From Alphaproteobacteria bacterium (GTDB lineage: Bacteria; Pseudomonadota; Alphaproteobacteria; MPNO01; UBA830), in the NCBI GenBank assembly GCA_964291215.2, contig OZ219790.1:384001-448000 (forward strand): DNA of 64,000 nucleotides. The letters are read 5' to 3'. Below the pieces are notes generated by a model, which was given only the letters and a program-made list of their open reading frames with translations, ran no database searches and was not told the DNA's origin. Made by a program: the position numbers and the translations under genes. Below, in pieces: positions 16,613 to 56,880 of this stretch. The number at the start of each line of letters is the position of its first letter. Within the stretch, counting starts at the first letter, position 1.

Positions 16613-16744
16613 GTGGGGCAACAAAAAATTCAGGCTCATCCCGATTACGGCAATGCGGCCGAAGGATGCCGCTGAAGGCCGGCGTAGCGCTGTGGAGAGA
16701 ACGGGACTAGGGTTGGCCATTCGCTTCGATGGATGAGGCTGGCA

Positions 16745-19700: not shown

Positions 19701-20416
19701 ACTCCCAGCCGGATCCGTTTGTCGGTTCAGTTGCTGAACACACTCATAAGGTAATTTCTGGAGGCGTTGACGCCCTTTCAGCCGTATTTGCCCGCGTCCC
19801 CGCAGCAGTCGACAACGACAATCTGGCAGATGCGCTACGGACGTTCCTTGCGGACCTAGAGGGAGACGGCATCCCTGCATTGAGGCTCGAAGCGGCGGCC
19901 TTGAAGGTCGTGCCCGAAATGCTGGAACGGGTGATCGGGCGAGTGAAGGCCGCGTTGTCTGACACCGAGCGCGGCGTGATAGTCGATGCGCTGTCTGCGA
20001 CGGAACTTCTGGCGGCGCATACGCTGCCGGAGGACAGGCGCGAGACATTTTCCGCAGTGGAGACGACGCTTGCCGATGGTATCTGGTGGCGCCACCGTCC
20101 AGCGCTTGCCGCGAGGCTGCGCTATACGGGGAGCCTGGTCAGGAGGCTGCCCTGGTTCCTGCCCAGGGAGAGAGAATGCGGTCTGCTGGCAGGCCTCGGT
20201 CATATCTCCGAAGAAACCGATCAGAACCGCGTCAGGGGTAACGATGGGGACGAACTGATCCCGACCCGGGCCTCGGCCGCGGCCCTGGCATCGGCGTTGG
20301 CTGAGCGCTACAGCGCGTTGGGGAAGGAGGAGCCGGGATCGATCAGGCGCTGGCGGGCGATCTGTAGCGACTCCAGTGAATTCGTAGAGGTCCGCAATGC
20401 GTGGACAGCGCTCTAA
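16745..20416 (+). CDS. Defence-associated sirtuin, Dsr1-like (N-terminal SIR2 NADase plus long helical region)
   Basis: VMVGAGFS, FTTNYD, KLHGS and GFSADDPNF motifs; ~1220 aa ending EFVEVRNAW. Intact. Confidence 0.82.
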   Translation: MSDEAPAHVKCCLDDLAARLWANKAAVMVGAGFSLNASSEFPIWQKLGDRFYERIHGCSPGDDARYLDILKLAGQVQAMFGRPALDDLLRQAIPDRHPPSLLHSRLLGLPWKDVFTTNYDTLLERALPAVPLKHYTVVTTEKEIPDAEGARIVKLHGSFPEGPFIITEEDYRRYPLDHDPFVNTVRQALLENKLCLVGFSADDPNFLQWLGWMRDHIGRKDALGIYLVALGRLGEADNQLLCDRGIVPIDLSWIAPGHEKREEEALNWLLKELEERKPRVSEWPRVSPEEQPWLRQSDPHRYGEVVEEWRRQRLDYPGWVVAPAEGRLQLWLHTENWLSHLSGLSGAERQALEPGLDLDLAFELAWRLDRCLMPLRVPTVGDLSSFLEEVEHKYGNASAEFLEEVGRETTCVVAAVFEVRLWLMRHYREQGLHDEWEAVRRRLEASLNLNAITLEYRARFRLETALQALFRFDPEEARQLLADEWPDNDATPFLDTNRTVLLAELQGDKDARPALESSLATIRRQQRQNRGADDYTLVSQESVVMLHYQMLDSGLLTVEEDSEQPSGIDLRDLTERQNELVRYNCAPHREVELLSAHVRSAPPTPPWSTRVETPDFDTGLVFRNYRFGPDEEALSAYRLLRMYEDLGMPYRIGYTTFVGRWLEGAVRRMGMQSPHWALVAIARLGSERAADSLFDREYLAGLTQTEVDRHCDAYLKALDRIVSMFEGTAPSGDGILEPLARTLPEVFSRLCCKCSPEYRECLVEMLGRIYGLPPRWRLVFNIPRFVHRLLESMSAVELARAAPTLIGLPQPLPMGPGGGISVGEHVHPVLLVNLPEPVRPGALGIQPGKVDELLDRMSCSTSKAERDWAAAPLVWLHEKDQLDEEQSKRLGNLVWDGVEAPEVPVVPGYPDFMCLRLPHPADIDPEPLVKQRLRSKIPHWGRTVPDNSMNELRNSAFWVKWTRPEAKELLAEASNWWRSNKHGTHDSQPDPFVGSVAEHTHKVISGGVDALSAVFARVPAAVDNDNLADALRTFLADLEGDGIPALRLEAAALKVVPEMLERVIGRVKAALSDTERGVIVDALSATELLAAHTLPEDRRETFSAVETTLADGIWWRHRPALAARLRYTGSLVRRLPWFLPRERECGLLAGLGHISEETDQNRVRGNDGDELIPTRASAAALASALAERYSALGKEEPGSIRRWRAICSDSSEFVEVRNAWTAL

Positions 20417-20757: not shown

Positions 20758-21222
20758 TCATTTCGTGGCCTCTCTCTCGAGCAGCTTTGGCGCGGCACGC
20801 CCCATCCCCTTCAGGGCGTGGAGGCTACAGCGGGGGAAAGACGAATTGGTTGAGGTAGCGCACAAGAGACGGCGCTGGTAGTGGTGAGTCCGGGCATGTC
20901 GGGCCAGATCCTCGACCGTGACCCCGCAGCCGGCAAGCAGAATCGAGCACTCATGGGGACGGATGGCCGAGAGCATCCAGTCGACGGCTGCACTGTGAGG
21001 GCAATCGGGGTCCGGCGGCCGCGCCAGGGCGGCAATTTTGCCGGCCCCGGTCGGGCGCGGCCCGGGCATTCCGGCGCAGTGCTTGCGCGCGATACGCCCG
21101 GCCAGAGCCTCTGCATCGGGCCACAGCGGGGATTTCCAATTGGCGACCTCGCGTGAGTGTGCGGCAAACGCTTCCGGACTGCACAATTCCACGGGCTCCA
21201 GATGTCCATGACGGTGCCTCAT
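20758..21222 (-). CDS. Hypothetical partner of the AbiEii gene, probably frameshifted near the 3' end
   Basis: ATGA overlap with the AbiEii stop. An alternative frame near 20860 reads VRYLNQFVF. Confidence 0.5.
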   Translation of the reverse strand: MRHRHGHLEPVELCSPEAFAAHSREVANWKSPLWPDAEALAGRIARKHCAGMPGPRPTGAGKIAALARPPDPDCPHSAAVDWMLSAIRPHECSILLAGCGVTVEDLARHARTHHYQRRLLCATSTNSSFPRCSLHALKGMGRAAPKLLEREATK

Positions 21223-22010
21223 TGTCCCGGGCCCGTGATGCCGTCGTCATCCTCCGGGACCGCCAGCGCGGATGGCGGAACGCTGAGGGCATCGATCACG
21301 GCCTCCTTGAACGCCTCTCCGGTCCATTGGAAATGCGGCTCCACCAGGGGCTTCACCTTGTCGTTGAGGAGACGGTCCCCCGAAATCTTCTGCTGGATGA
21401 TATCCTGGACAGTCTCGATGTTCCTCGGGTCGGCCCGTCCCAAGGCCGCCCGGAGAGATGGCAAATCGAATTCTCTCGCGCACACAATGTCGAAGAGGTC
21501 ACGAGTGGCGATTTCACCGGCCTCGTACATTCGCCGCACGATCTTCCCGTAGAGAATGTCCACGTTCGAATGCAAGGCGAGCCCGGTGCCGGCCAATCGG
21601 GTCGTGTGGAGGGGATCCAGGTTGAAACTTCTGGGCAGAACGGTCACCTCAGTGCCGTCGATCTCGGCATAGGTCCCGATGGAATCGCACCAGGTCGATT
21701 CTGCCTTGCATCCCGGGATCGCCTTGATGGCAGCTTCCAGGCGTTCAAGTTCCGACCGTCCTAGGGCGTCGTAGGCACCCGGCGTGCAGAACAGGTCCAC
21801 GTCCAGGGAAACCCGGTGGCCCCACCGGGCCGCCAGAACCGTGCCTCCCCGGAACGACAGGTGTTCCGGGGAGATGAACTCCGAAAGCACGTTGAACATG
21901 CACCGCGTCACCAGACCCGGGTGGCCGGGGACTTCCTCCTCCTTCTGCCCGGACCTGTTCCGGGTATCCGGTTCGGGTGCGTCCCGCCTTGGCCTGTCGA
22001 TATCCGTCAT
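21219..22010 (-). CDS. AbiEii/AbiGii-family nucleotidyltransferase toxin
   Basis: FRGGTVLAARWGHRVSLDVDLF and RDLFD motifs. Confidence 0.85.
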   Translation of the reverse strand: MTDIDRPRRDAPEPDTRNRSGQKEEEVPGHPGLVTRCMFNVLSEFISPEHLSFRGGTVLAARWGHRVSLDVDLFCTPGAYDALGRSELERLEAAIKAIPGCKAESTWCDSIGTYAEIDGTEVTVLPRSFNLDPLHTTRLAGTGLALHSNVDILYGKIVRRMYEAGEIATRDLFDIVCAREFDLPSLRAALGRADPRNIETVQDIIQQKISGDRLLNDKVKPLVEPHFQWTGEAFKEAVIDALSVPPSALAVPEDDDGITGPGQ

Positions 22011-22526: not shown

Positions 22527-24231
22527 TCACGCCCCTCCGGATGCCTTCTTTATCCATCCGAAATCGGAAACGTAGCTTTCTGCCTGCGGCAGAATCTGAT
22601 TCAGAACCTGACGGTGGCGAAGTACGATTCTCTCCGCTTCCAGTGCCTTGACCGCGTCCTCGGCCTTCCCTTCCTCGAGCCGTCGAATATCCACCTCGAT
22701 CTGCGCAATAAGACCAGCGAGTCCGTCCGCAACGTTCTCGAAGACGGGAGACGGAATTTCACCATCTCCTGCCTCCAGCACTGCAAGAATTGTAGACCTG
22801 TCTGCATCCAGGGCCTCTATGACTTCGAGCACCTGTTTGGATAGCGCCGGGTTCAGCCTCGTGAAGTGAGTCCGCACGGTCGTGTTCTCCGAAAGGAAAA
22901 TCCAGCCGGAGTTCCTTCAGTTCCCGAACGGACCGGTCGAGTCGGGCACTGGCCTTCTCGGCATCGCTGTGCGCCTGACTGGCCAGGAACTCCCAGAAGC
23001 GCCTGATGAGAGCCGCAGAGGCGGCATCGAGAGGTCTGTGGCACAACAGGCAATGATCGCCGTCGTGCGGATAATCGTCTCGTTCCCGGCGTGCCAACGT
23101 GTTGGCGGCGGCGAGAAATTGTTCCCACTCCGGCGTTCCGATGCTCTCGAAGAAATCCCGCCTGAATGCTTCCGCGCCTTCCGCCGCCACAAGGCGGGCC
23201 GTTTGACGGAACGCCGCGAGTTGAATTCGATAGGTCGCGCGCCTGTCTTCGGTCAGAGGCTTGCTGCTTTCCAGCAGGCGCCCTTGGAGCCCGACGATAT
23301 CCCGTTTTGCATCCTGCAGTTGCTTGACGGCTTCCGCGACCGATCTGGAACGCAGTTCTTTTATCTGCCGCTGAACCTCTTCCAGTCTCGCCGTCTCGGT
23401 TTCTCCGAACGTAGCCAGCAGGCGAAGCTCCGCGAGATCGGTCTCTGCATCCAGCCCGGCTACGAATTTGAAAACGGAGCTCTCCGGCGCCACAAAGCTG
23501 TTTATCAAGGCGTTGTCCCGGTCCCGGTGTGCAATCTCCGCCCCAAGTCGATTGCCAAGCTCGGTGTAGACTCGAGCCATCTCGGGAAACACGTCGAACC
23601 CAGCTGGCTTGAAACCGAGAGGACTTTGCTCCACCAGATGCGTGTGCGCCACAGCCGTATCGAACACGGCAATCCGCCTGAGTTCCGAATGCTACGTGGA
23701 GCCATCGAACTCAAAGACTGTCTCCTGCTGGGTACCGTCTGCGATGACAATCTTCGCAGCAGGCTCCCCCAGTGGATCCTCTTCATACACGTTCGGAAGA
23801 ATGGGATGTTGCATACGGCTGAAGCAGACGTTGGACAGAATTCGCGTATAGCCGCTCTTGCCGACGCCATTGCCGCCATAGATAACGGTGAGGGTCGGCG
23901 AAAAGCTCAGTTCTCCGCCCGCTGGCAGTGCGTTGATGGAACAGAGGTCGCCAATTCTCCGCAACCGGATTGGCATGGGAGCGACCTCGGCCGGCCGGCC
24001 CGAGATCTCCACCGACACCTCGGTCAGGGGATCGGACGCTTCGGCAAGGCCGTGATCCTGCAGAAACACTTGGTACACCCGCTCGATTTGTTCATCGCTG
24101 AGTCGCCCGATGCGGACGGTGTTGGCAAGCACAAACCGCTGCCACGGCTTGAACCCCTTGGCCCATCCATCGAGCTGACTCCAGATCGTGGCCCGCGGGT
24201 TCTGCGCCCCGGATTCCCGTTTCTCCGCCAT
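22527..24231 (-). pseudogene. SMC/Rad50-like AAA ATPase with zinc hook, disrupted
   Basis: Walker A GGNGVGKSG, coiled coil and CLLC hook. In-frame TAG at 23692-23694, frameshift at ~22890, C-terminal half absent. Confidence 0.8.
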
Positions 24232-25840: not shown

Positions 25841-25876
25841 TGCCGGTCCCCGTCGTTCTCGATAACCACCACTAAA

Positions 25877-27739
25877 CCGAAGTTCCAGCACTGATCAGAC
25901 GTATCATTATGAATGTATTGACGTTTGAAAAAATCAGGTGTGTCGCTACTGGGAACGCTACAAGCGTACGCCGAGGTAGTCCAGGGCCTTTTTCTGGAGC
26001 GGCGTGGGCCGCGTGGTGACCTGGAAGGGTTGGGCGCCCGCAAGGCGGGGCGCCACGGTGTTGCGGGTGGCGAGATTGTCGATGAGGGTGGAGAAGCTGT
26101 GCCACCCCCGGGTGTCCTCTTGGTTGCCGCCTTGGCCCGGGCGCTCGCCGAGACCTCTGCTGGCGCCACGACGGAAGGGCGCCTTCGGCATCCTCGTCGT
26201 CGAACAGCATGGGCTTCAGTCGCATGTGCCATTCGATGTAGTAGGCGAGCATGCACAGGAAGACATGGGCCCGGGGCTCGGTGCGGTGGTAGACGGGACG
26301 GACCTTCAGATCCACGGTCTTCAGGCTGCGGAAGGCCCGTTCCACCGAACTCAACCGCTTGTAGGCGCGCACCGTGCCGGGACCGTCGAGCTCGCTCTGC
26401 GGCAGGCTGGTGCGGATCACGTAGAGGCCGTCGAGCCTAGCCTCGGCAGCGATCGCAGCCTCATCGCGCCCATAGGTGAAGACACCGTCATCGTCGATGG
26501 ACCACGTGAAGTGCTTCGCCATCTTGTACTTGCCGATGACCTTCCGCTCCCCGATCTTCCCGGCACCCTTGAGACGGCGCTTGTCGCGCCGTGTCGCTGC
26601 TGCGATCGGTTCAAGCAGGGCCTCGGTGGCCTCAAGCAGTTCCTGGCGCTTGCGAGCCCGATCTTCGGCCAGCAGCGGGTTGCAGCACACCATGAGGCGT
26701 TCGCCGGGATACGCATCGCTGGTGATCTCCACCAGGTCCCTCTCGTCGAAGAGCGACATCTCGACGTCGCCGGCCTCCACAAGGGCGCGGATGGCCGGTC
26801 CCCTCAAGGCGCTGATCCAGTCCAGGCCCGCAGGCTTCACCTCCTCGCGTATGCGCGCCTCGGTCAGCATCCCCCGGTCTCCCACCAGCACCACCTTCGC
26901 CAGGGAGAAGCGCTCCTGCAGCGTGGTGATCTGTGACGCAACCGTCCCGGGGTCCGCCGTGTTGCCGGGGAACACTTCCACCGACACCGGACAGCCGTCC
27001 CGATCGCACAGAAGGCCGGCTGCAGCTTGCCCTTCTTGCCGTCCCGGGAATGACCCCGTTTGGCCAAGGGACACCCCTCCATCCACACTGAAGTCAGGTC
27101 ATAGAGCACCAGGCAGCCCTCTTCGAGGCGCCGCTTCGCCAGGGACCGCTCGATCCTCTCCTGACGCTCCAAGAGCCAGGCGCCGTAGAGGGCGTCCTCG
27201 TCCATCTCCGCATCGAGGATCTCGCCCAGGGTGGAGACCGCTGTGGCCTCGGCCAGACCCCGTGCCGTGGCCAGCTTCGAAGCGGGCTCGAGGATGCGTG
27301 CCACGATCATGGCCAGGACCTGATCGCGCGAGGGCTTCGGGTCGATCAACCTGTCCAGCTTCTTCAGGGTTCCCAGCACCCCGGCGACATGGGGAAGGGA
27401 GCGGACGATGTCGAAGGCATCGTCACCGAGGGGTTCGTTCTTCAAGAGGCGCCGCAGGGTCTCGACCTTCTCCATGGGCCAGGAGGAGAGATTGGCGATG
27501 GTGCGCTTCTTGACCTTGCCGTTCTCGCGCCATCCTTCGCGCAGGAGGACGGCGGGGGGTGAGTTGCGGTTGGGGACGATGTCTACGTACATGGCAACCT
27601 ATATAGGGATGAAAGCTCAATTTATCAAGGGAAAAATTCATAATTACATGGGAACATTTTCACGTCATCATCGCCTTATCTTGTCAACACAATCAAGCAG
27701 TTGTCGTGATTTTTCTGCTGAAATCGGCGGGAACTTCGG
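25877..27739 (-). mobile_element. IS1634-family element copy A (frameshifted transposase)
   Basis: IRs CCGAAGTTCC/GGAACTTCGG; 6-bp TSD ACTAAA. Motifs LYDLTS, VGDRGM and VERAFRSLK. Confidence 0.92.
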
Positions 27740-30263: not shown

Positions 30264-32102
30264 CCGAAGTTCCCGCCGATTTCAGCAGAAAAATCACGAC
30301 AACTGCTTGATTGTGTTGACAAAATAAGGCGATGATGACGTGAAAATGTTCCCATGTAATTATGAATTTTTCCCTTGATACATTGAGCTTTCATCCCTAT
30401 ATAGGTTGCCATGTACGTAGACATCGTCCCCAACCGCAACTCACCCCCCGCCGTCCTCCTGCGCGAAGGATGGCGCGAGAACGGCAAGGTCAAGAAGCGC
30501 ACCATCGCCAATCTCTCCTCCTGGCCCATGGAGAAGGTCGAGACCCTGCGGCGCCTCTTGAAGAACAAACCCCTCGGTGACGATGCCTTCGACATCGTCC
30601 GCTCCCTTCCCCATGTCGCCGCGGTGCTGGGAACCCTGAAGAAGCTGGACAGGCTGATCGATCCGAAGCCCTCGCGCGATCAGGTCCTGGCCATGATCGT
30701 GGCACGCATCCTCGAGCCGGCCTCGAAGCTGGCCACGGCTAGGGGGCTGGCCGAGGCCACAGCGGTCTCTACCCTGGGCGAGATCCTCGATGCGGAGATG
30801 GACGAGGACGCCCTCTACGGCGCCTGGCTCCTGGAGCGTCAGGAGAGGATCGAGCGGTCCCTGGCGAAGCGGCGCCTCGAAGAGGGCTGCCTGGTGCTCT
30901 ATGACCTGACTTCAGTGTGGATGGAGGGGTGTCCCTTGGCCAAACGGGGTCATTCCCGGGACGGCAAGAAGGGCAAGCTGCAGATCGAGTTCGGCCTCCT
31001 GTGCGATCGGGACGGCTGTCCAGTGTCGGTGGAAGTGTTCCCCGGCAACACGGCGGACCCCGGGACGGTTGCGTCACAGATCACCACGCTGCAGGAGCGC
31101 TTCTCCCTTGCGAAGGTGGTGCTGGTGGGAGACCGGGGGATGCTGACCGAGGCGCGGATACGCGAGGAGGTGAAGCCCGCAGGCCTGGACTGGATCAGCG
31201 CCTTGAGGGGCATCCGCGCCCTTGTGGAGGCCGGCGACATCGAGATGTCGCTCTTCGACGAGAGGGACCTGGTGGAGATCACCAGCGATGCGTATCCCGG
31301 CGAACGCCTCTGCCGCAACCCCCTGCTGGCCGAGGACCGGAAGCGCCAGGAACTGCTCGAGGCCACCGAGGCCCTGCTTGAACCGATCGCAGCAGCGACA
31401 CGGCGCGACAAGCGCCGTCTCAAGGGTGCCGGGAAGATCGGGGAGCGGAAGGTCATCGGCAAGTACAAGATGGCGAAGCACTTCACGTGGTCCATCGACG
31501 ACGACGGTGTCTTCACCTATGGGCGCGATGAGGCTGCCATCGCCGCCGAGGCCAGGCTCGACGGCCTCTACGTGATCCGCACCAGCCTGCCGCAGAGCGA
31601 GCTCGACGGTCCCGGCGCGGTGCGCGCCTACAAGCGGTTGAGTTCGGTGGAACGGGCCTTCCGCAGCCTGAAGACCGTGGATCTGAAGGTCCGTCCCCAC
31701 CGCCCCGGGCCCATGTCTTCCTGTGCATGCTCGCCTACTACATCGAATGGCACATGCGACTGAAGCCCATGCTGTTCGACGACGAGGATGCCGAAGGCGC
31801 CCTTCCGTCGTGGCGCCAGCAGAGGTCTCGGCGAGCGCCCGGGCCAAGGCGGCAACCAAGAGGACACCCGGGGGTGGCACAGCTTCTCCACCCTCATCGA
31901 CGATCTCGCCACCCGCAACACCGTGGCGCCCCGCCTTGCGGGCGCCCAACCCTTCCAGGTCACCACGCGGCCCACGCCGCTCCAGAAAAAGGCCCTGGAC
32001 TACCTCGGCGTACGCTTGTAGCGTTCCCAGTAGCGACACACCCGATTTTTTCAAACGTCAATACATTCATAATGATACGTCTGATCGGTGCTGGAACTTC
32101 GG
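30264..32102 (+). mobile_element. IS1634-family element copy B
   Basis: Same IRs as copy A; own 6-bp TSD CTTAAC. ORF starts at 30411 and frameshifts at ~31703. Confidence 0.92.
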
Positions 32103-32135: not shown

Positions 32136-35100
32136 TCAGTCACTCAGAAGGTATTGCGTGACCAGAGCCCGCATGATGGCCTCACCTCGTCCGGAGAGCC
32201 GTCGAATGTCGACCTCCGACATCGCGGAGAAATCGGTCGGATAACGAATCACATCTTCTCTGTCGACCCAGTTGGCTGGCTTGAGCGGCACCCGCCGGTC
32301 GATCTGTCCGAGAGCGGCGTAGACGAAGCCGTCAATGCGTTCCGCCTTGGCGTGCTCGTGTAGGCGTTGCTTGGTCGCGTCCTGGACCTTTCGCATGATT
32401 GCGGAGACGACTTGGCTCATGCGCTTCGGCCAGCTGAGGGGGCGGATCTCGCCGGTGAACTGGCCGATCCCGGCGTCGCTTGCGATGATGATGTCGACGT
32501 CGTAGTCAATCGTGCTGATCCGGGGATCCCGGTCAGGTTCCATGACGGTAATGCCGAGGTTCTCGAAAACGCCGCCATCGGTCACGATGACCCGCTGCAT
32601 TTCGGTCTTGTCGTTTAGTTTGAACGGCCTTCTCCAGTCGAAGGGCGGAAGTAACGGCGGGTAAGCGGCCGAGGCTGCGACGGCGTCGGCCACGCGAAGT
32701 TCTCTGGCCGGAGCCCATCCATACCGGTAGGAGCCGAAGCGTTGGTTGCTCATGCGGAAGGCAGTGCCGGTTCGAAGCTCACACGCGTTGAAGACGATCA
32801 ACTTGTGCTGACGGGTGGGTGCATCGCATTTCTGCGGGCCGACCACGTCGGCAATGGCGTCGGCCAACACATGCGTTAGCGAGTAGCGGCGTCGGATGGG
32901 CCACGAGGTGCGGGACAGCGCGGCGCATGCACTGCGGAGACCCGGGAAGAGCGAGGCGACACGACTCGCCGACCCGGTGAGGAGGTCGACAAGGAGCGTT
33001 GGGAAGGCGACGAAGACGAAGTTCCATACAAGGGGCGCAGCGCGCGCGGGATGGATGAGTTTCACGAGTCCCGGCACTACCAGGCCCCGGCGAAGGAACT
33101 GGACGATGTTGCGATCTATGTCGACGAACGGTGCTTCGGTATAGCCGAGCCTCCCGGTCATGACGGCCCCACCCGACACGCCGGAGATCACGTCGACCTC
33201 ATTGAGCAAGTTCAGGTCTTCGAGCGCGCGCAAGGCGCCAAGGTGAAACGCAACGGCGCGTGATCCGCCGCCAGAGAGTGCCAGACCGATCACCTTGTCG
33301 AGCGCCGCGACGGGAGGCGGAGTGGTGATGCCGCCGCGGACCGAAAGGGCCAGCTCGGTTTCGGTATCAAGCGCGGCGAGTTTCTGTTTCTGGAATGTGT
33401 AGACTCCGAGTTCCGGTTGCGTACGGACCGCGTGGCCGACGATCGCCATCAAATGATGGGCGCCGTCATCAGGAGCCGCTGTAAAGATGTCGGTGATGCC
33501 CAGGTAGTCGGTGAAGCTGGGTTGGGCACTACCGACCGGATGGGAATGCCAGGTGCCGATGTAGCGAACGATACCGTCGGTGCGCGCGCGGTAGTCCTCG
33601 CACAGCTCCCTCGTGCCGTGCGTTCCGCAAACGAAGCCCTCGGGAGAGAAGGTGCTGTCGCGCGGGGGGCCGCTGACGTTGGTAATCCACGCGATTCCGA
33701 GGGTCTCGTCCAACTCGCCGAACAGCAGGCCGCCGGTCTCGTGCTCGGCGGAGCGTTCACGGGCGCCGGCGCGGACCCAGCCCGTCATGTCGCGCCAGGC
33801 GTTCATGGACATGCGGAAGTCGATTCCATCGGCGATCCAGCGCATGTCGGGTCGAAAGCGGAACCTGTGCTCGCGACGATGGGGAGAGCACGAAATGAGA
33901 AGACCGCTGGCTGCATCGTCCGGTTCGGCGAGGATTTGGGCGAGAGCGTTGAGGGCTTGGGCAGAGAGCGCGGCGACATCGGTATGCGACGCCACGAAGG
34001 TCGGATTGGAGCAGCCGGGCTCGGGTTGGCGGAGGCCGTCGATGGCCCCCTGGGTCCAGAAGGCTTCGGACCAGTCGCTCAGCCAGTCCCGCGCGATGGC
34101 GGCGATGCCGAGACGGCGAAGCGCGTCGAGGGGGCCGGCGCGGTATCCGGTTGGAGCGAGCACCGCAACCGCTTGGCGGGCGGTGGCGCTGATCATCAAG
34201 GTCGCAATGGGAGCCTGGCGCTCGTGCTCCTTGAGCAGCGCCTCGAGCTTGCTGCGCACCTGCAGAGACGCGGTCGCGTCGATGATGAGGTCGGCATCCG
34301 CGTCCCAGTCCGGTTCGGCGAGGGTGTGCGAGATGAGGTCCTCGGACCGGGTCGTGACCTGAAGTCCGGGGGCGATGGATTGCAGACGCCCGGCAAGCGC
34401 CGCGGCCTTGGGCTCATTGGCGTCGAGTGCGGAGAAATTCTGCCGTATCAGCAGACTGGGAGCGACACGGCCTCGATCGAAGAGCTTGAGTTGGGACACA
34501 CCGGCGCGTACGAGATGTTCGGCGATGAGCCCGCCGATCGCCCCGCAGCCCCAGAGCGCAACGCGCTTGCCGCGAAACCAGTCCATCGATGTGCCCTCGT
34601 CGCGCCGAGTGATGACTTCGGGCCGGTTCTCAATCACATGACACCATCGTACACGGGCTTCCTTCCTCCAGGTAAACAAGGTGCCGAGGATGGTGTCGCT
34701 CAATGCCTGTATGGCAGCGGGAGTGTCCTGTCCTTTGTAGCGGTTGCTGAATTGGCAGGCGATGGATGCGGCGCGCAGCTTGGCGACGTCCCCCGGCTCA
34801 ATTTCCCAGAAGGTGAGGTGCTGGTTTCGTTGTGCGGGGTCGCCAGCGATGCCGCGCGACGGCGCACCGATGCCGATGTAGAGTGAGGTGCTATCGGGGA
34901 TCCGCTCGGAAGCGACCATCATGTGGGCAAGGAAGCGGTAGCCCAGACGTCCCTTGGCCTCCAGGTAGTCGAAAAGGTATCGTACTTTGCGCGGGTACTC
35001 GAACGGAAGCTCGAAGTTCAGCAGCACGGTCGGCGCAAACGGCATGTGGTCGGGGAGCGCATGCAGGGGGATCCACGCCTGGACTTCGAGAAGGGCCGGT

Positions 35101-35636
35101 TTGGGCTCATGGAGGGTGGCGGCGCCGAACCATGGCCAGGTATCACGAGCCGGGGTGTCGGCGTTGACGCAGATCGTAGTTGTGGCAACCGGGTAGGTGA
35201 CCGGCGGGTGCAGGGGTCCCTCGGGATCGTCGAGCTCGTTTCGCGCTCCGCGTCGAAACCACTCGTCGATCTGCGCCAAGAACCCGAACATGCCTTGGGA
35301 GGGGATCCACTGGGTCTCGGTGGACAGATAAACGCAGAGACGGGTTCCCCACTGCACATGGCCGAAGCCGTGGAACCGGGAATGGGGGGTGTCGACCGAC
35401 GGCGAACTGAATGGAAAATCCGCCGGCACCGAAAGCGTGATGCCTTCTCGGTCGTGCAGCGGAAGGCCTCCCTCGACACGCGGGTAGTGCGTGCAGTCGA
35501 GCGAGATATCGACGTTCAGATAAGCGCCGGGAGCCGGGTCATCGTCGATACCGACGATCCGGATGGGAGATCGGTGCGTATTGGCGATACGCCGGAGTTG
35601 GGTGAGGGCAATCCGTTGCCCTTCACTTATTGCCAC
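32136..35636 (-). CDS. Four-domain fusion: E2-like / ThiF E1 / JAB protease / patatin phospholipase
   Basis: E2: FPFSSP..HVQWGTRLCVY. E1: WGCGAIGG, FDRG, LIRQ, IIDATA, PEPGC. JAB: ETGG..GTWHSHP..PSFTD. Patatin: LSGGGSRA, GVSGG, DGG. One uninterrupted 1166-aa frame. Confidence 0.88.
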   Translation of the reverse strand: MAISEGQRIALTQLRRIANTHRSPIRIVGIDDDPAPGAYLNVDISLDCTHYPRVEGGLPLHDREGITLSVPADFPFSSPSVDTPHSRFHGFGHVQWGTRLCVYLSTETQWIPSQGMFGFLAQIDEWFRRGARNELDDPEGPLHPPVTYPVATTTICVNADTPARDTWPWFGAATLHEPKPALLEVQAWIPLHALPDHMPFAPTVLLNFELPFEYPRKVRYLFDYLEAKGRLGYRFLAHMMVASERIPDSTSLYIGIGAPSRGIAGDPAQRNQHLTFWEIEPGDVAKLRAASIACQFSNRYKGQDTPAAIQALSDTILGTLFTWRKEARVRWCHVIENRPEVITRRDEGTSMDWFRGKRVALWGCGAIGGLIAEHLVRAGVSQLKLFDRGRVAPSLLIRQNFSALDANEPKAAALAGRLQSIAPGLQVTTRSEDLISHTLAEPDWDADADLIIDATASLQVRSKLEALLKEHERQAPIATLMISATARQAVAVLAPTGYRAGPLDALRRLGIAAIARDWLSDWSEAFWTQGAIDGLRQPEPGCSNPTFVASHTDVAALSAQALNALAQILAEPDDAASGLLISCSPHRREHRFRFRPDMRWIADGIDFRMSMNAWRDMTGWVRAGARERSAEHETGGLLFGELDETLGIAWITNVSGPPRDSTFSPEGFVCGTHGTRELCEDYRARTDGIVRYIGTWHSHPVGSAQPSFTDYLGITDIFTAAPDDGAHHLMAIVGHAVRTQPELGVYTFQKQKLAALDTETELALSVRGGITTPPPVAALDKVIGLALSGGGSRAVAFHLGALRALEDLNLLNEVDVISGVSGGAVMTGRLGYTEAPFVDIDRNIVQFLRRGLVVPGLVKLIHPARAAPLVWNFVFVAFPTLLVDLLTGSASRVASLFPGLRSACAALSRTSWPIRRRYSLTHVLADAIADVVGPQKCDAPTRQHKLIVFNACELRTGTAFRMSNQRFGSYRYGWAPARELRVADAVAASAAYPPLLPPFDWRRPFKLNDKTEMQRVIVTDGGVFENLGITVMEPDRDPRISTIDYDVDIIIASDAGIGQFTGEIRPLSWPKRMSQVVSAIMRKVQDATKQRLHEHAKAERIDGFVYAALGQIDRRVPLKPANWVDREDVIRYPTDFSAMSEVDIRRLSGRGEAIMRALVTQYLLSD

Positions 35637-36780
35637 GACCGAATCCGACCGCGACGGCAGGCGGCGACGCGGCGACGCCGCCGACAGCCTTCAGCACCTC
35701 GCTCATGGAGCTGCTCGATTGTGTGTCGCCAACATATGCGAAACCGTTCCGGTCGACCTCGAAGATGATCGGCTTGGGATTCTTGCGGTTCGGGTGTTCG
35801 TGGGTGCACAGGAAGGCGTTGGCGACGATGCGTTCGTACTGTCTCTTCGCCTTGGCGTGAGGTGGGTTGTCGCCCGGGTCGTTGCGTGTCGGCACAGGTT
35901 CGGAACTCGAGACGACATGTCCCGGGTTGAGGGCTGCGGCAGCGATCTCGCGAACGATATGCTCCTTTAGGGTCTCGTCGCTGTCCCCCTCTTCCTTCCA
36001 GTACATGGCGGACTTCGAGCAATGATGCGGGGCGAGCAGCACATTCCAGGCGAGTGTCGTGCGGATACTTCGGTGGAAGATTCGCCGGATGACGGGATAG
36101 CTGAGGTCCCCCATGAGCAGTGCCCGGCCAGCGTGGTTGCCATTGTAGAGCGAGACCTGGAAGGCGAGGCTGCAGTCGTTGCGGTCACCGAAGCTGTCCT
36201 CGCGAAACGGGGCGTGGACAAACGCCTCGAACCGATTGGAGAGATCCTCACCGTCCAGTGTCGTAATGGTCTTACCGGGAATGGTCAGGAACTGCGCGGG
36301 GAAGCCACGAAACTCGCGTTCGCACAGAAGGTCGTCGTAGCCGATGATGCGAATGCGGTTACCCCGGCCGGGGTCGCCGCCCGCCCGGATAGCGGCTTGG
36401 ACGCGACGCATGGCCTCATCGTGAAAGGCTTGTGCGTCGTCGCAAAGGTCGTCGCCCTCCATGAATTCGCGAAAGGTGCGCGGCGACATCCAGAGTTCGG
36501 AGACGATGACGCGGCGTTTCAACTCCTCGAAGCCCTGGCAATGGTCGAGATCGGGATGGCTAAGTCCGAACACCGACAGGTATGGCGTGCCGCTGAGTCT
36601 CGGAAGGATACGTATGAGCTCGTCGATGACCGGCCAGGCGGGGTCGCTGCGGTTTCCCGCCTTGGCCATGTGCCGAAGGTCGATTTGAAGGTAAACCGTT
36701 TCTGTTACTCGAATGGTCGTGCTGTCGCCCGTGCCGACGGGCCAGAAGATGAAGCCCTGATCAGGTGGTTTGATGGCCAT
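35623..36780 (-). CDS. MBL-fold (ComEC-like) hydrolase with GFG-containing C-terminal tail
   Basis: VGTGDS, SHPDLDHCQG, NDCS, LMGD and APHHCS motifs; ends PPAVAVGFGRGNK. Overlaps the next gene by 14 bp. Confidence 0.85.
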   Translation of the reverse strand: MAIKPPDQGFIFWPVGTGDSTTIRVTETVYLQIDLRHMAKAGNRSDPAWPVIDELIRILPRLSGTPYLSVFGLSHPDLDHCQGFEELKRRVIVSELWMSPRTFREFMEGDDLCDDAQAFHDEAMRRVQAAIRAGGDPGRGNRIRIIGYDDLLCEREFRGFPAQFLTIPGKTITTLDGEDLSNRFEAFVHAPFREDSFGDRNDCSLAFQVSLYNGNHAGRALLMGDLSYPVIRRIFHRSIRTTLAWNVLLAPHHCSKSAMYWKEEGDSDETLKEHIVREIAAAALNPGHVVSSSEPVPTRNDPGDNPPHAKAKRQYERIVANAFLCTHEHPNRKNPKPIIFEVDRNGFAYVGDTQSSSSMSEVLKAVGGVAASPPAVAVGFGRGNK

Positions 36781-43624: not shown

Positions 43625-44032
43625 TCAACATGGAGATTCGATAGGACCGGAGTTTATCCGAGTGGTCAGCGGGCAAATGTCCCAATCAAGGACGCGACCA
43701 AGCGAGAAGGCGCGGAATCGGCCTTTTCCTTCCTTGCCGTGCAGAATTCGCTTCTGTCCGTTCGAATGAAATCGCGATTGTTTCCACGATCCTCCCAGAC
43801 GGGAGAACAACCCCTCGGCTTCGGCAAAGGGAATGCCATGTCCGTTGTCGGCGACTCTGATGGCCTTGAGCCCGTCGAGGTCCTCTTCAACCAGCGTCAC
43901 GTCGATATGCGTGGCATCCGCATCGACTGCGTTCCAGATCAGCTCGGCCAGGGCAAGGAGGGGTTTTCGGGTCTGCGCGACCCGTTCCAGATGGTCGTCC
44001 TGAACCTGTATCTCAAAGGTCCTGGCGGTCAT
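43625..44032 (-). pseudogene. GHKL/HATPase ATPase N-terminal fragment
   Basis: [14 protein letters not shown] and GKEGKGRF motifs. ATGA-coupled to hsdR; truncated after ~120 aa. Confidence 0.8.
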
Positions 44033-47000
44033 GCTGCCCACTTCGCCGATAACGCTTCGGCCTGTTGCAGAACCGTCTGCACGGCGGCGTCCTGGAGGTC
44101 GGGCGGATACCCGTGCTTGCGGAGGATGCGCTTGACCAGAACCCGCATCCGGGCGCGGGCCGGCCCGCGGTGCTGCCAGTCCACGGAGGCTTTGCTTTTC
44201 AGCCCGTTCAGCAATTCCCGGGCGATGACGCGAAGGTGATCGTTGCCCATCACCTCGACCGCGCTCTCGTTCTGGGCCAGGGCATCGTAGAAGGCGATTT
44301 CCTCGGGGCTGAGACCCTCCTCCTCGCCGCGCCGGTGTGCGGCGCGGATGTCCTTCGCAAGCCCGATCAGTTCCTGAAGGACCTCGGCCGTCGTGAGGGC
44401 GTTGCCGTGGTAGCGGGCGATCGCTTCTTCCAGCCTCCGGGAGAAGGCCCGGGTCTGCACGACGTTGACCCGGCTTCGCGAGCGAAGCTCCCCGTTGATG
44501 AGCTTGCGCAGCGCCTCCAATGCGAGGTTCTTCTTCTCCATCTCCCGTATCTCGGCCAGGAACTCGTCGGAAAGGATGGAAATGTCCGGCGTATCCAGCC
44601 CGGCGGCTGCGAGAATGTCGACGATCTCGGTCGAAACGACCGCGCGGCTGACGATCTGCTGAACCGCCAGGTCCCGCTCCGCGGAGGACTTGCCGGCGCC
44701 GGGCGCGCTTTTGGCGAGCGCTGCACGGACGGTCTGGAAGAAGCCCACCTCGTCGCGGATTTCCCGGGCTTCGTCGCTGGCGGCCGCGAGCGCGAACGCC
44801 CTGGTGAGCGCCAGCACGGCGTCGTTGAAGCGGCGCCGGGCGTGCTTCTTGCCTTCTCCGGTCGATTCCCGGGCCGCCTCGCGGTGCTGCATGTCGAGGA
44901 CCCACTCGATGGCGCCGGCCAGCGCCGCGAGCCGCTCCTGCGGCGACCCGACAAGGCCGTTGCGGAAGTCGAAACCATGGAACATGGCGCTCACGATCTC
45001 GTACTTCTCCAGCATGACCGCGACGGCTTCGGCCTCGTCGATGCCGGCGTGCCTTCGGTCGTCGCGCGAGTACTGGCCGAGGGCGGACTTCAGGTTCTGC
45101 GCGATGCCGATGTAGTCCACGATCAGACCGGCGGGCTTGTCGCGGAACACGCGGTTGACGCGGGCGATGGCCTGCATGAGCCCGTGCCCCCGCATGGGCT
45201 TGTCGATGTACATCGTGTGCAGGCGCGTCGAAGCCGGTCAGCCACATGTCCCGCACGATCACCAGCCTGAGCGGGTCGTCCGCGTCCTTGATCCGCTTGG
45301 CGAGCAGCTCCCGGCGGGCCTTGCCTCCGATGTGGCGTTGCCAATGCGTCGGGTCCGACGCCGCGCCGGTCATGACGATCTTGATGACGCCGCTTTCGTC
45401 GTCGTCGCTGTGCCAGTCCCGGCGCAGCCTGACGATCTCGCCGTAGAGCGCAACGCAGATGCGGCGGCTCATGCAGACGATCATGGCCTTGCCGTCCATG
45501 CCGGCAATACGACTCTCGAAATGGTCGACCAGATCCCGGGCAACCAGGCGCAGGCGCTTCTCCGTCCCGACGACGGCCTCGACGTTCGCCAATCGTCTCT
45601 TGAGCCGTTCCTGCTCGCCTTCGGCCTCGTCCTCGATCAGTTCGGCGACCTCGTCGTCGAGCGCCGGCTTCTCACCTTCGTCGAGTTCGATGCGGACGAG
45701 GCGGCTCTCGTAGTAGATCGGTACGGTCGCGCCGTCTTCGACGCCGCGGTTGATGTCGTAGATGTCGATGTAATTGCCGAACACGGAAGGCGTGTTCACA
45801 TCCTCCCTTTCGATCGGCGTGCCGGTGAAGCCGATGAAGGAAGCGTTCGGCAGGGCGTCGCGCAGATATTTGGCGAAGCCGTAGGAAATCTCTCCGGTCT
45901 TGCGGGCCATCCTGGCGCGGAAACCGTACTGGCTGCGGTGCGCCTCGTCCGCGATCACGACGATGTTGCGGCGGTCGGAGAGGGCCGGGTATTCGATCTC
46001 GCCGGCCTCGGGTGCGAACTTCTGGAGGGTGGTGAACACCACGCCGCCGGACGGACGCGTCAGAGCCTGTCGCAGGTCCTCCCGGCTGTCGGCCTGCCGC
46101 GGGGTCTGGCGGAGCAGGTCGCGGCACATGGAGAACGTGCCGAACAACTGGTCGTCGAGGTCGTTGCGGTCGGTGAGGACCACGAGGGTCGGGTTCTCCA
46201 TCGCCGGGTGGGCGATGACCTGTCCGGCGTAGAACGCCATCAGCAGGCTCTTGCCGGAGCCTTGCGTGTGCCAGATCACGCCGATACGGCGATCGCCTGC
46301 CGGGCTCGTCGCGGTGATCGTGCGCTCGATCGCATGGCGTACGGCGTGAAACTGGTGATAGCCGGCCACGATCTTGACCAGTCCCGCGCCCGTGTCCCCG
46401 AACACGGTGAAGTCCCGGATCAGGGCCAGGAACCGGTTCTTCTCGAACACGCCTTCGACGACGGTTTCGATCTCGGGGGCGCCCTTCGATGCGACGGCGG
46501 CGCCGTCCACGGTGCGCCAGGGCATGAACCGCTCAAGATTGGCGGTCAGCGATCCGAACCGCGCCTGAAGGCCGTCCGAAGTCATGAGAGCGGCATTGGT
46601 GCGGAACAGGGAAGGTATCTCCTCCTTGTAGGTCCGGAGCTGGTTGAACGCCCCTTCGAGGGTGGCGTTTTCGTCGCCGGGGTTCTTCATCTCGATCACG
46701 GCCAGCGGCAGGCCATTGAGGAACAGCACGATGTCGGGGCGGCGATTGTGTTCGTGCTCGATCACCGTGAACTGGTTCACCGCCAGCCAGTCGTTGGCCT
46801 CGATGTCGTCGAAATCGATCAGACGGGCAGCGTCGCCGCCGATGCTGCCGTCCTCCCGCGCCACCTCGACCGGCACGCCCGCGATCAGGTAGCGGTGCAG
46901 GCGGCGGTTCTCCTCGACGAGGGAGGGAGTCTCCGTCTGCCGCACCTTGCGGAGCACCTCCTCCAGCGCCGCGGCGGGCAGGTCCGGGTTGAGGCGGGCG

Positions 47001-47164
47001 AGCGCCTCGCGGAACCGGCCGGCCAGCAGCACCTCGTCGTAGCTGCCCCGCTCCGGCGCCGGGCCTTCCGGGCCCATGTCCGGCCCATGAACCACGGCAT
47101 AGCCCAGTCCGGCGAGCCATGCGAGAGCCGCGTCTTCGACATCCGATTCGGAAAGACGGCTCAT
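44029..47164 (-). pseudogene. hsdR: Type I restriction subunit R, one frameshift at ~45222
   Basis: RPD..EMK nuclease, [16 protein letters not shown] and FTGTP motifs. MWLTGFDA and [10 protein letters not shown] are out of frame. Confidence 0.92.
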
Positions 47165-48150
47165 TCGCCGGATTCGCCCAGAAGATTGACGATAAGGCGA
47201 ATTATGAGATCCTTGTTCGACGGTGCGCTTTCGGCGATCAACAGGGTGAGCGCCGTCAACCCCCGGGGGTCGAGCCGGTGCGCGATTCCCTCCTGTGTCA
47301 GATAGAGCAGGAACAGCAGGGCGCCGATGCGCTTGTTGCCGTCGGTGAACGGGTGATCCTTGACCAGAAAATAGAGCAGGTTGGCCGCCTTGTCCGCGGC
47401 GCTGCGGTAAAGGGGTTCGCCGAACATGGTCTGCTCCACATTGCCGAGAATGGCTTTCAGGGCTTCGCCGCGCCGGGTGCCGAACAGCGATGTGGCTTCG
47501 CCCTTTGCCGCAAGATCGCTCCTGAAAGCGTCGATCGCGGCGACGGCGGTGTCGAGGCCGAGCGCGCTGGTGGCCGGCTTCGCGCCGGCCGGCGCCTTGA
47601 GGCGGTCCTCGTCGTATTCGAGCAGCACGCGCCACGTGTCGGCGTATCTTGTGATCAGGTCCAGTACGGACTGGCCCGTTTCGTCGACGAGCGCTTGGTT
47701 CCTGAGCGTCCGGGCGAGCAAACCCAGGGTTTGGCGCGCCTCGTCGAGGCCCCGCTCGGCAAGCCGCCGCTCATTCATCGTGTAACCGCTGACGAGATGC
47801 TCGCGCAAGGTGCGGGTGGCCCAGATACGGAACTGTGTGCCGCGCAGGGACTTCACCCTGTAGCCGACCGAGATGATCATGTCGAGGTTGTAGTGATCCA
47901 CCTCCCTGGATACCCTTCGCCCGCCCTCGGATCGAACCTGTGCAAAATTTGCACAGGTTGACCCTGGGTCCAGCTCTTGTTCACGGTAGGCGTTGTGGAT
48001 GTGCCGGGCGATTACGGAACGATCCCGCCCGAACAGTTCCGCCATCTGCGGCCGGGTCAGCCAGACTGTCTCCCTGTCGAAACGCACGTCCACGCGCGCC
48101 TCGCCGTCCCCGGACTCGTAGACGATGACTTCGCCGCCGGGGGAGTTCAT
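47161..48150 (-). CDS. RhuM / Fic-DOC fusion protein
   Basis: [21 protein letters not shown] (RhuM) and HPFTDGNKR (Fic). Confidence 0.9.
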
Positions 48151-49759
48151 GCAACGTCCTCGACTGCCTCTTCGGCATCACGAAGGCGGATTTCGCCGGA
48201 CATGAGCTTGGGGAGCAGGAGGTCGCGGGTTTCTGCAAGCTTTCGGCTCTCCAGTTTATTCTTGATGGTGTGTTCTATCAGCGGGCCAATCGACGGGCCA
48301 AGCAAGGAAAGGACGCCATCAGAGGGGCAAGTCGTTGTTGCCTCCTTCAGGTGCCGTCGTTGAATGTGACCCATGGTTGTTGTCTTCGAGGCTGCTATAG
48401 CCTGAAACTCTTCCAAGTGATGGAGAACCCACTGGCTGACGAACCATGATGGAAATCTCTCCGAAGTCACTTTGAAGAGGTGTTGGTTCAGCGCTCCTTC
48501 GCCTTCGGTCCAGAACTTTGCAAGAAGGCTGCCCGACCAAGAGAACAAGAAGTCACCATCCCTCACGACATACTTGTCTGGGACATCGTATGAGGCCCGG
48601 CTAGATCTGGGCGTTATGCCCGCGCGCAACTCGGCGATTTTGATGACCGGTAAACTGTCGTCAGGGCCCAAGGCAGGAAATTTCTGAAGAGCCAGACCGT
48701 TCAGGAAGTTTGCGATCTTGTCGAGAGGCAGTCTCACCCACCCGGCCGGCTTGCCCTCGCCGTCCAGCGCATCGGGAAACAGTTCCCACAGTTCGGGGGC
48801 GAGGTACGGAGCACGCCCTTCCATTTTCGCCCGGACCGGCCCGAAATCGACGAACCAGTCCTTGAAGATCGCCCGCGCCATCGCCTCCAGCGTCTCGTTC
48901 ATGCGCCGGTTCAGTTCGATCTTGTCGTCCAGCGCGCCGAGAATGCCCGCAATGGCGCGCTGTTCGAGTAGGGGGGTACTGGAACCGGCAGATAACTCAG
49001 GGAATCGACAGGCACTCGCTGACGCCCGGAAGTGCCGGTCATTTGATCCACGGCGTAGCTTCTCACCCCCTCCCATTGAGTTAGGTAGTAGGCGTACTCG
49101 GAATCCGTGACGCCCGCGCGTCCGCGGATAACGATGAACTCGGTCGAGCCATGCGCGCACTCTGCCGCCCGGTCTGTGCAATAACGGGCAATCTTGCCAT
49201 TCTCCAAGCACGGCGTAATGCGCGCCATGAGCGTGTCGCCATCTTGGAAGCGCGACCCGCCGCCGGAATAGGCGCGCCGGTCAATCGCATGTACGCACCG
49301 GGAACCGGCAGTGACCGCAGCCATATCAACGAACGGATACGCCATTCCGCGTTCAAGACGCACTGCCGGGTTGACAACGACTGCTTCGGTAAACGGCATA
49401 CGCCGCCACTTTTCATCTACAGAGAGCCTCCTTCGCCTGGTGTCATCAATGTCTGCCAGCACCGCATGGTTCCGCTCAATCTCCCGATGAAATCGCTCCG
49501 GCAGGCGCGCCCAGTCGCGGGCCTCGACCAAGAAGGGAATGGTCGATTCCCGCACCGCCTCCTCGAAGTCCGCCAACTTGTCGGCCGGGATCTCCCCCTG
49601 TCCCGGCCCGCGCAGCACCAGATCGAGATCACTGCCGTCATGGCTGCGCCCGTTGACGCGGCTGCCATAGGCCCATACCTCGACATCGGGCAAATGCTCC
49701 CGCAGCAGGGCTGTCAGCACCTGGCGGTGCTTCGGCTCAAGATGCAACCGGTCAGTCAT
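48147..49759 (-). pseudogene. hsdS: MNT nucleotidyltransferase-HsdS fusion, frameshifted at a C6 tract
   Basis: N-terminal YGSRVNG..SDLDL, then TRD1 (ARITPCLENGK). VPP and LLEQRAIA..LDDKIELN are out of frame at 48971-48976. C-terminus LAETRDLLLPKLMSGEI. Confidence 0.88.
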
Positions 49760-50177
49760 CCGGCGCCGCCTCGATCATGTCCGCCAGCGCCCGGGCATCG
49801 GCGATAAAGTCGGGCAACAACTTGAGCGGGGTCTCGGCGAAGCCTGCGCCGTAGTCGTGCGCGGTATCGTTGCGGTTGTCGCGATAGCTGAACCAGCGTT
49901 CCGCCGCGACGGCTTCGATCAGTCCGTGCCGGGCGGCGTGGCGGAACAGGTCCTTGAAGGCAAGCCGGTCCGCCTGTCTGTTGCTGGCGAAGAAGGCGGC
50001 AAGCCGCTTGCGCAACAGTTTGCCGCTCTGCTCCAACACCAGCTCGAACTCCTTCACGCAGGCGGCGCGATAGATGTCATACATGAAATCGTCCGTCGCG
50101 CGCTGGTTGTCGATCTCGCCGAAAGCTGTCTCCAGCGTTCCGATGCAGCGCCGCAAGAAGGTGGTATCGATGCTCAT
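49752..50177 (-). CDS. HEPN-family protein (nucleotidyltransferase substrate-binding/HI0074-like)
   Basis: Start MSIDTTFL. KEFELVLE and RNDTAH (Rx4H) motifs; overlaps the MNT start. Confidence 0.85.
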   Translation of the reverse strand: MSIDTTFLRRCIGTLETAFGEIDNQRATDDFMYDIYRAACVKEFELVLEQSGKLLRKRLAAFFASNRQADRLAFKDLFRHAARHGLIEAVAAERWFSYRDNRNDTAHDYGAGFAETPLKLLPDFIADARALADMIEAAPDD

Positions 50178-50229
50178 GCCCCGCTGCTCCGTCCCCGGTG
50201 CGCAGACCCGTTGCGGCTCATCCATGAGC

Positions 50230-50610
50230 GGCAGACCGATTGGTCGATCAATTTCGGCAAGATTATGAGCCTCAGCAACCGTTGCTATGACACAGGCGTG
50301 CGCCATGTTGCCCACCGGAATTTCCTCCAATTCTGGTCCGCGCAGCACCAGATCGAGATCGCTGCCGTCATGGCTGCGCCCATTGACGCGGCTGCCATAG
50401 GCCCACACTTCGACATCGGGCAAATGCTCCCGCAACAGTACCTCAAGCGCCTCGCGGTGCTTCGGCTGGAGATGCATCCGGTCAGTCATCCGGCGCCGCC
50501 TCGATCATGTCCGCCAGCCCCGGTGTCGGCGATAAAGTCGGGCAGCAGCCTCAGCGTGGCCCCGGCGAAGTCTTTCCCGTTGTCATGGACGATATCGTTA
50601 TCGACAATCC
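50230..50610 (-). pseudogene. Remnant of a second HEPN-MNT(-HsdS) module
   Basis: 50341-50570 is a diverged duplicate of 49611-49842 (HEPN 3' end plus MNT 5' half). Confidence 0.8.
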
Positions 50611-50724
50611 CTCGCAGGTCATGGCAGGGGCAAGGCTGTCGGGGAACAGCCTTCACTGGAAGGCGCCGCGCGCCTTGGCTTACCGACATATTTCCCGGCG
50701 CATGCAAATGGGAAGAGATCATCG

Positions 50725-52263
<1,539 letters not shown>

Positions 52264-56846: not shown

Positions 56847-56880
56847 TAAGCCACCGCGGCCGCATGTCAAGGGGAGAGCG

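Follow-up and report, generated by a model that had tools for sequence, protein, structure and literature searches.

Type II CBASS (an antiphage system that signals through cyclic oligonucleotides) combines a tail-conjugated enzyme, Cap2 and Cap3 as writer and eraser, and an effector slot. A related anti-phage system, 6A-MBL, reportedly received its name from van den Berg et al. in 2024. Iyer, Burroughs and Aravind listed its operon of a metallo-beta-lactamase (MBL) gene and an E2-E1-JAB gene as row 6a in 2006 (PMC1779556), in a text from which the word 'patatin' is absent. According to a review (PMC13276650), 6A-MBL stems from a P. aeruginosa study in which its anti-phage activity was confirmed experimentally, and it is described with two components and no effector (PMC1779556; models NF058523 and NF058524). 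In this work, a 6A-MBL locus was analysed in a window of 64,000 nucleotides (nt) from an Alphaproteobacteria bacterium (GCA_964291215.2, contig OZ219790.1, positions 384,001-448,000 of the forward strand). The window copy adds a patatin domain to the two components, and a third gene is present in 6 of 8 other sampled members. Judging from gene content, the place behind E2-E1-JAB acts like an exchangeable effector slot that holds patatin or membrane proteins. The reading that we favour over all rivals, at slightly less than an even chance, is that the locus represents a patatin-armed subtype of 6A-MBL in which a conjugation-gated MBL would make a diffusible product that acts on the phospholipase.

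The locus consists of an MBL gene and the gene of a 1166-residue fusion protein. Both genes are intact, lie on the minus strand, and overlap by 14 nt in the open reading frame (ORF) analysis, which agrees with the original prediction made from the sequence of the window. The ORF finder offered an alternative MBL start (TTG at 36789) that gives 388 amino acids (aa). The promoter scan returned a single site at 36874-36845, which is at chance level (1 found vs 1.0 expected), and the terminator scan returned fewer sites than expected by chance. Pfam places Prok-E2_A at residues 38-163 of the fusion protein, ThiF at 355-470, Prok-JAB at 626-715, and Patatin at 785-1030. The four domains share one frame, and each exceeds its gathering score. 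Across 29 fused homologues (54-85% identity), no variation occurs in C101, G363-x-G-x-x-G368, C542, E633/H697/H699/S707/D710, G789GG, S821, or D1020GG. The domain order and these residues bear out the earlier claim of an E2 cysteine, an E1 site, a JAB protease, and a complete patatin in one frame. When unfused relatives down to 29% identity are included, C101, C542, H697, H699, S707, and D710 remain invariant and E633 nearly so. All 118 homologues parsed (120 listed) have the E1, PEPGC, and JAB motifs; 115 of them have DGGV, 114 have the serine motif, and 111 have the E2 motif. With the MBL included, the active sites are intact and conserved in all five domains.

By family model, the core of the locus is the known anti-phage system 6A-MBL (operon type 6a), because both proteins pass the NCBIfam cut-offs. 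The MBL scores 285.5 bits on NF058524 (cut-off 220) and the large protein scores 338.2 bits on NF058523 (6A-MBL cap2_3; cut-off 320). PADLOC profiles also match the fusion protein (E1-E2, E 1.3e-76; JAB, E 3.3e-20), and among solved structures the E2-E1-JAB profile is matched best by CBASS Cap2 (7TO3, E 3.7e-20). The novelty that had been supposed for this core is not supported, since the curated models are passed and the operon was described in 2006 (PMC1779556). The MBL is ComEC-like by profile search. Its model (predicted local distance difference test, pLDDT, 89) is matched best in Foldseek by the ComEC nuclease domain (9ic4) and then by Pce (2bib). The MBL is not a passive tag, because its catalytic residues are invariant in 53 of 53 sequences.

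The MBL ends in the sequence PPAVAVGFGRGNK. The tail census covered 90 complete MBL C-termini with near-duplicates kept, 77 from the window's clade and 13 from other 6A-MBL clades. All 77 clade tails carry the motif (GFG in 73, GYG in 3, and AFG in 1). After the last glycine, 0 residues follow in 6 of these tails, 1-3 in 32, 4 in 36, and 5-11 in 3, and this extension of 0-11 residues varies freely in sequence. Ten of the 13 tails of other clades lack the motif and the other 3 have spurious matches 22 residues from the end. Patatin-less 6A-MBL tails exhibit HG, RAG, or similar residues followed by 0-6 more. Gly381 is likely the mature end because the glycine is conserved, the extension is variable, and the stop follows directly after the glycine in 6 of 77 tails. 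The JAB likely trims the four residues (RGNK) after Gly381; in Bil, JAB pre-processing of a C-terminal extension exposes a glycine (PMC10557695). The precedent for conjugation and its reversal is Cap2/Cap3 (bioRxiv 2022.03.31.486616; PMC11153139). By analogy with CBASS Cap2/Cap3 and Bil, we consider it highly probable that trimming after Gly381, adenylation, thioesters at C542 and then C101, and reversible conjugation prime or restrain the MBL. The tail results support two parts of the original prediction, namely the conservation of the GFG tail (in the wider form GFG/GYG/AFG) and the ubiquitin-like reading in which the MBL tail is the substrate and the JAB exposes Gly381.

The patatin domain exhibits the GGGxR loop, the GxSxG serine, the DGG aspartate, and the patatin fold that define a patatin-like phospholipase. 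Its model (pLDDT 92.7) is equally near to cPLA2, PlpD, CapE, patatin, and CapV (Z 23-25), so the likeness to CapV/CapE is one of fold only (Z 23-24) and is level with that to other patatins. Long hydrophobic helices are indicated by hydropathy at about residues 860-910. The domain scores 19.8 bits on the DS-2 phospholipase model NF053870, below the cut-off of 400, and no curated family model matched it. The patatin family comprises at least 2,464 sequence clusters.

The fusion is recurrent among the relatives of the window protein. There are 610 matching proteins, and the best 120 of the 610 all carry ThiF, JAB, and patatin on one chain; together with a junction that is conserved in close homologues, this rules out a sequencing artefact or a one-off stop loss. 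Scanning genomes with two patatin motifs gave 94 relatives, of which 80 loci were kept. JAB and patatin share one frame in 35 of the 80, which come from 8 named phyla and several of which have breaks further upstream, and the same patatin is the separate next gene, as a third gene, in 22. Three-gene relatives include loci of Aromatoleum toluolicum and Parvularcula oceani. Of the remaining 23 loci, 3 are fragments, 2 hold family patatins in a different setting, and 18 hold distant patatins. A conserved fusion, as had been predicted, is therefore upheld, with fusion and fission recurring. The 150 representatives at 50% identity comprise 39 E2-E1-JAB proteins with patatin, 101 stand-alone ones, 2 with other extensions, and 8 partial ones. 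The FastTree tree of 137 of these representatives exhibits 28 state changes, at least 14 of which are forced by starred branches, and carries long-branch warnings. The concatenated tree (34 rows) forces 2 fusion or fission changes and the MBL-only tree forces no more than one. A single origin of the fusion is ruled out by the concatenated tree and the FastTree tree. The window protein lies inside a fully supported fused clade. The window clade (MBL and ligase) is separate, with about 28-30% identity to patatin-less members and support of 100/100, and patatin-bearing MBLs do not form one clade (approximately unbiased test, p 2.7e-20). The distribution is patchy. In the window's own family and order, 2 of 41 genomes are positive, its own genome included, and the congener copy is 71% identical; other Alphaproteobacteria records hold copies at 80-100% identity. 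Viral contigs hold 3 loci, one of them fused. In another E2-E1-JAB protein (P0310), residues 740-1017 form an apparent degenerate patatin without the glycine loop.

The linker between JAB and patatin was examined for a cleavage signal. In the window's clade the spacing is 89 residues in 105 of 118 close homologues, and a Gly-Gly pair is retained in 114 of 118 and encoded by 11 codon pairs among 32 loci while the linker is otherwise variable. The 11 different codon pairs rule out a relic ribosome-binding site. Self-processing, in which the JAB would cut a ubiquitin-like Arg-Gly-Gly in the linker and free the patatin, would account for this retained pair; it is nevertheless very improbable, as the linkers of the 39 fused representatives exhibit no common motif, the linker is unlike the GFG substrate while Cap3 is sequence-specific (bioRxiv 2022.03.31.486616), and separate patatins need no release. 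The released patatin of the original prediction is accordingly not supported, and the conservation proposed for the junction holds for the spacing and the Gly-Gly pair of the window's clade and fails for the linkers of other fusions.

The same scan bears on whether the patatin belongs to the system at all. E1/JAB machinery lies near 56 of 57 full-scoring family patatins, and the one exception adjoins MBLs. All 7 plasmid copies of the patatin that were examined lie in E1/JAB-type operons, and none of the 18 distant patatins has such machinery. These counts leave hardly any room for an independent patatin defence gene that clusters by chance and was fused by neutral stop loss, even though stop-start adjacency would ease such a fusion and a solo copy exists (L165). 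That copy rules out, as an absolute rule, that the patatin always goes with an MBL.

The content of the slot was compared in 401 genomes drawn evenly from the window's phylum; cap2_3 occurs in 11 of them. Patatin is present in 3 of the 11 genomes, and the other 8 are patatin-less. Six of the 8 patatin-less loci exhibit a co-oriented protein with 2-4 predicted transmembrane (TM) helices, by a simple hydropathy count, close after the JAB. Four of these TM genes overlap the stop by 4 nt, one lies 62 nt downstream, and one follows a further MBL gene. For these six loci, a patatin-less 6A-MBL without an effector is ruled out. Four of the TM proteins belong to one family, one belongs to a second family, and one matches neither query. 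The second family is also fused to E2-E1-JAB in another protein (P0285, residues 783-985); this extension has a weak Csx27 match (E 0.0017, 18.4 vs 65 bits) and matches unnamed Atlas clusters at 0.94. On 5 of 7 plasmids examined (8 matches), the patatin follows a different 6A-MBL clade with RAG tails. The TM-slot loci are L094, L095, L096, L098, L099, and L102, and several of them have another MBL gene before or after the TM gene.

The same effectors were also found in a second, peptide-modifier chassis. Loci L038, L130 (partial), L131, and L148 encode a peptide, a small E2, a Phd-E2-like protein, a stand-alone ThiF, an extended JAB, a ComEC-type MBL without a tail, and then patatin. The peptide has 56-63 aa, ends in LGGEY with 0-7 more residues, and resembles a modifier without the ubiquitin fold. 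L167 has this operon with a TM protein of the first family at its end in place of the patatin; this protein has no PADLOC or NCBIfam match, and its homologues follow E2-E1-JAB in L094, L095, L096, and L102 (E 5e-27 to 7e-39). The patatins of L147 and L148 are 75% identical and those of L040 and L131 are 72% identical, and both pairs are supported sisters. The MBLs of the same two pairs are not significantly similar by BLAST (E 7.6 and 9.2), and the E1 and JAB domains align weakly across both chassis (24-33%, mostly over short stretches). The second chassis lies directly upstream of a fused 6A-MBL in L011, L015, L018, and L028. It was found in none of 401 genomes of the window's phylum, in 1 of 301 genomes of another phylum, and in 1 plasmid record. 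This second operon is apparently undescribed.

Because the effectors occur in both chassis although the other proteins cannot be aligned, a shared small activator is easier to accept than a protein interface. In the favoured mechanism, the JAB would trim the MBL tail by four residues, E1 and E2 would attach the exposed Gly381 to a target, and infection would switch on the MBL to make a small diffusible product. This product would activate the fused phospholipase, and membrane damage and abortive infection would follow by analogy with CapV. The fusion would then serve chiefly to anchor a portable effector on the ligase and would not define the switch. Gene swapping, and nothing besides it, suggests that the MBL is a phosphodiesterase in the role of a cyclase whose nucleotide- or lipid-derived product activates the effector, a proposal to which we give about an even chance. 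More tentatively, 6A-MBL and the second chassis may both be second-messenger systems in which a conjugation-gated ComEC-type phosphodiesterase replaces the cyclase. The new immune signal would then be read by a shared pool of effectors (this patatin family together with two or more families of membrane proteins), and the window would hold the tightest version, which unites writer, eraser, and effector in a single chain. One publication (PMC11601596) in passing uses the term signaling enzymes for the proteins that are conjugated in CBASS, Pycsar, and MBL pathways.

The original prediction held that the phospholipase is activated without a nucleotide messenger, since no cyclase is nearby. This is not supported, given patatins of 72-75% identity beside MBLs without significant similarity and TM proteins in the slot; the swapping of patatin and TM proteins agrees with a portable activator no less than with messenger-free activation. 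Direct coupling without a messenger, in which the tethered lipase is allosterically activated by the MBL's state of conjugation, or by MBL attached to the patatin or to an adjacent membrane protein, in the manner of ExoU, is unlikely. It would explain the recurrent ligase fusion (seen in 39 of 150 representatives, with no fewer than 14 forced changes), the fixed JAB-patatin spacing, and the lack of a nearby cyclase, and ExoU is indeed activated by ubiquitin and lipid (PMC7665212). It does not sit well with near-identical patatins that serve chassis whose MBL, E1, and JAB barely align, with unrelated TM proteins in the same slot, or with a patatin that is separate in 22 of 57 loci.

Rather more doubtful is the alternative that the MBL is itself a toxic hydrolase (a nuclease or head-group phosphodiesterase) conjugated to a phage protein or to lipid in the manner of Atg7/Atg8, with the patatin as a second weapon at the same membrane site, for example the jumbo-phage early vesicle. 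The original two-gene layout (PMC1779556), the ComEC and Pce folds of the MBL, the closeness of 6a-family E1s to ATG7 (bioRxiv 2022.03.31.486616), and the counting of 6A-MBL among jumbo-phage defences (bioRxiv 2025.09.30.679545) are in its favour, as are the 2 of 8 loci in which no third effector was found. It leaves unexplained the alternative membrane effectors in the same slot of both chassis. The MBLs are also mostly too acidic to be well suited as a free nuclease (net charge of -10 or lower in 43 of 53 family MBLs), although the window MBL has a charge of only -5.

Several observations weigh against the conjugation-gated product that we favour. To our knowledge, no product of any such MBL is known, and the nearest MBL folds are degrading enzymes (nuclease and phosphocholine esterase). 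In 2 of the 8 patatin-less loci, no TM effector lies within 1.5 kb, and the MBL may be toxic alone. None of 48 family patatins matches the CapV model NF041079 at E<=0.001. The second chassis could have inherited its patatin by deletion and not by shared chemistry. L165 holds a lone family patatin, and L034 (3474-7134) has two different MBLs immediately in front of a family patatin; type I restriction genes adjoin them, and the scanned ORFs include no E1. The recurrent fusion onto the ligase also suggests physical coupling.

A two-gene 6A-MBL armed with a lipase, an activity that is simple to assay, offers a direct read-out for what the conjugated MBL does. If the slot reading is true, MBL-fold enzymes would be a further source of immune signals next to CD-NTases (cGAS/DncV-like nucleotidyltransferases), Pycsar cyclases, and TIR domains, and the patatin family and unnamed membrane-protein families would be signal receptors. 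If it is false, the locus would still be a ubiquitin-like ligase wired to a phospholipase.

The surroundings of the locus are defence-type genes (Table 1). The immediate flanks are transposase remnants. The decayed island of the original prediction holds for these flanks and the frameshifted HsdR, and not for the whole window, which keeps a Dsr2-like ORF free of interruptions and another ThiF cluster. This cluster, which also has divergent helix-turn-helix (HTH) and IrrE-like genes, presumably resembles a Bub-type ubiquitin-like operon. Plasmid relatives of the locus have WYL or HTH/IrrE regulators upstream. No SMODS cyclase was found among the 52 ORFs of the window, as had been claimed; the genome itself holds three matches to SMODS, which lie on the other contig or at distances above 1.6 Mb. 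The best CD-NTase of the genome (CBASS locus L153, G000:C1:2144860-2148351) adjoins a true CapV, which passes NF041079 (226 vs cut-off 200), and its cyclase is apparently split over two ORFs.

Table 1. Features of the 6A-MBL locus, of the remaining window, and of the second-chassis operons (window positions unless a locus is named).
Feature	Position	Strand	Remarks
E2-E1-JAB-patatin fusion	32136..35636	-	1166 aa, GTG start; NF058523, Pfam, 610 homologues
E2 domain (Prok-E2_A)	35148..35525	-	catalytic C101 at 35334-35336
E1/ThiF domain	33837..34619	-	GCGAIG 34533-34550; presumed crossover-loop C542 34011-34013
JAB/JAMM peptidase	33372..33815	-	E633, H697, H699, S707, D710
Gly-Gly in JAB-patatin linker	33330..33335	-	conserved in the window's clade only
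Patatin-fold phospholipase (predicted)	32139..33290	-	GGGSR oxyanion loop, S821 33174-33176, D1020 32577-32579
ComEC/Pce-type MBL-fold enzyme (6A-MBL MBL protein)	35623..36780	-	385 aa from ATG 36780
Metal-binding motif HPDLDH (H75, D77, D79, H80)	36541..36558	-	invariant in 53 sequences including patatin-less 6A-MBL
Second metal-binding motif H252-H253	36022..36027	-	with D225 (36106-36108) and N201; invariant in 53 sequences
Disordered MBL tail, residues 367-385	35626..35682	-	pLDDT <50
Gly379-Phe380-Gly381	35638..35646	-	Gly381 predicted as mature C-terminus and conjugation residue
RGNK extension	35626..35637	-	predicted to be trimmed by JAB; codons lie in the overlap with the start of the next gene
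Two near-identical DDE transposases	25872-27592 (-), 30411-32054 (+)		opposite-facing, many small indels; among IS66- and IS630-type fragments
Dsr2-like sirtuin	16733-20416	+	1227 aa, uninterrupted; 947 bits on NF041819 vs cut-off 1400
Type I restriction cluster	43625-52434	-	HsdM, nucleotidyltransferase pair, RhuM/Fic protein, frameshifted HsdR
Frameshifted P-loop ATPase fragments	22527-24231	-	
AbiEii-type nucleotidyltransferase	21219-22010	-	
Second ThiF cluster	54534-58146		104-aa ORF 56151-56465; 423-aa PRK06153-like ThiF 54959-56230; 142-aa CPCGCG protein 54534-54962
Second-chassis operons	L131:1311-6116; L038:4836-9908; L148:3264-8170; L167:1717-6293		

MBL operons with a further hydrolase are reportedly mentioned by Ledvina et al. 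in 2023 (Nature version). Within the literature searched, the patatin fusion, the third effector gene, and the second chassis are undescribed; supplements, van den Berg 2024, Ledvina 2023 (Nature), and PMC4678834 lie outside that scope and may describe them. Compared with ComEC and Pce, the MBL shares the fold of the ComEC nuclease domain and of Pce and the HxDxDH, GD, and HH motifs. It differs in identity (about 18% and about 12%, respectively) and in being a stand-alone protein with a predicted conjugation tail. The locus shares with Bil and Bub the predicted JAB pre-processing of a C-terminal extension that exposes a glycine; its modifier is an enzyme with an effector attached, and no separate beta-grasp ubiquitin-like ORF was found in the two-gene unit. 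Similar to type II CBASS, the locus exhibits a Cap2-like E2-linker-E1, a Cap3-like JAB, a patatin-fold effector, a glycine-tailed enzyme other than ubiquitin as predicted substrate, and swappable membrane-acting effectors. It differs from type II CBASS in having an MBL in place of the CD-NTase, in carrying JAB and patatin on the ligase chain, and in a patatin outside the CapV family model. The closest system is 6A-MBL, with which the locus shares the MBL gene followed by the triple E2-E1-JAB in that order, the glycine-bearing flexible tail, and an intact E2 cysteine, E1 ATP site and cysteine, and JAB and MBL metal sites. It differs from other 6A-MBL in the patatin fused after the JAB and in the GFG tail in place of HG or RAG.

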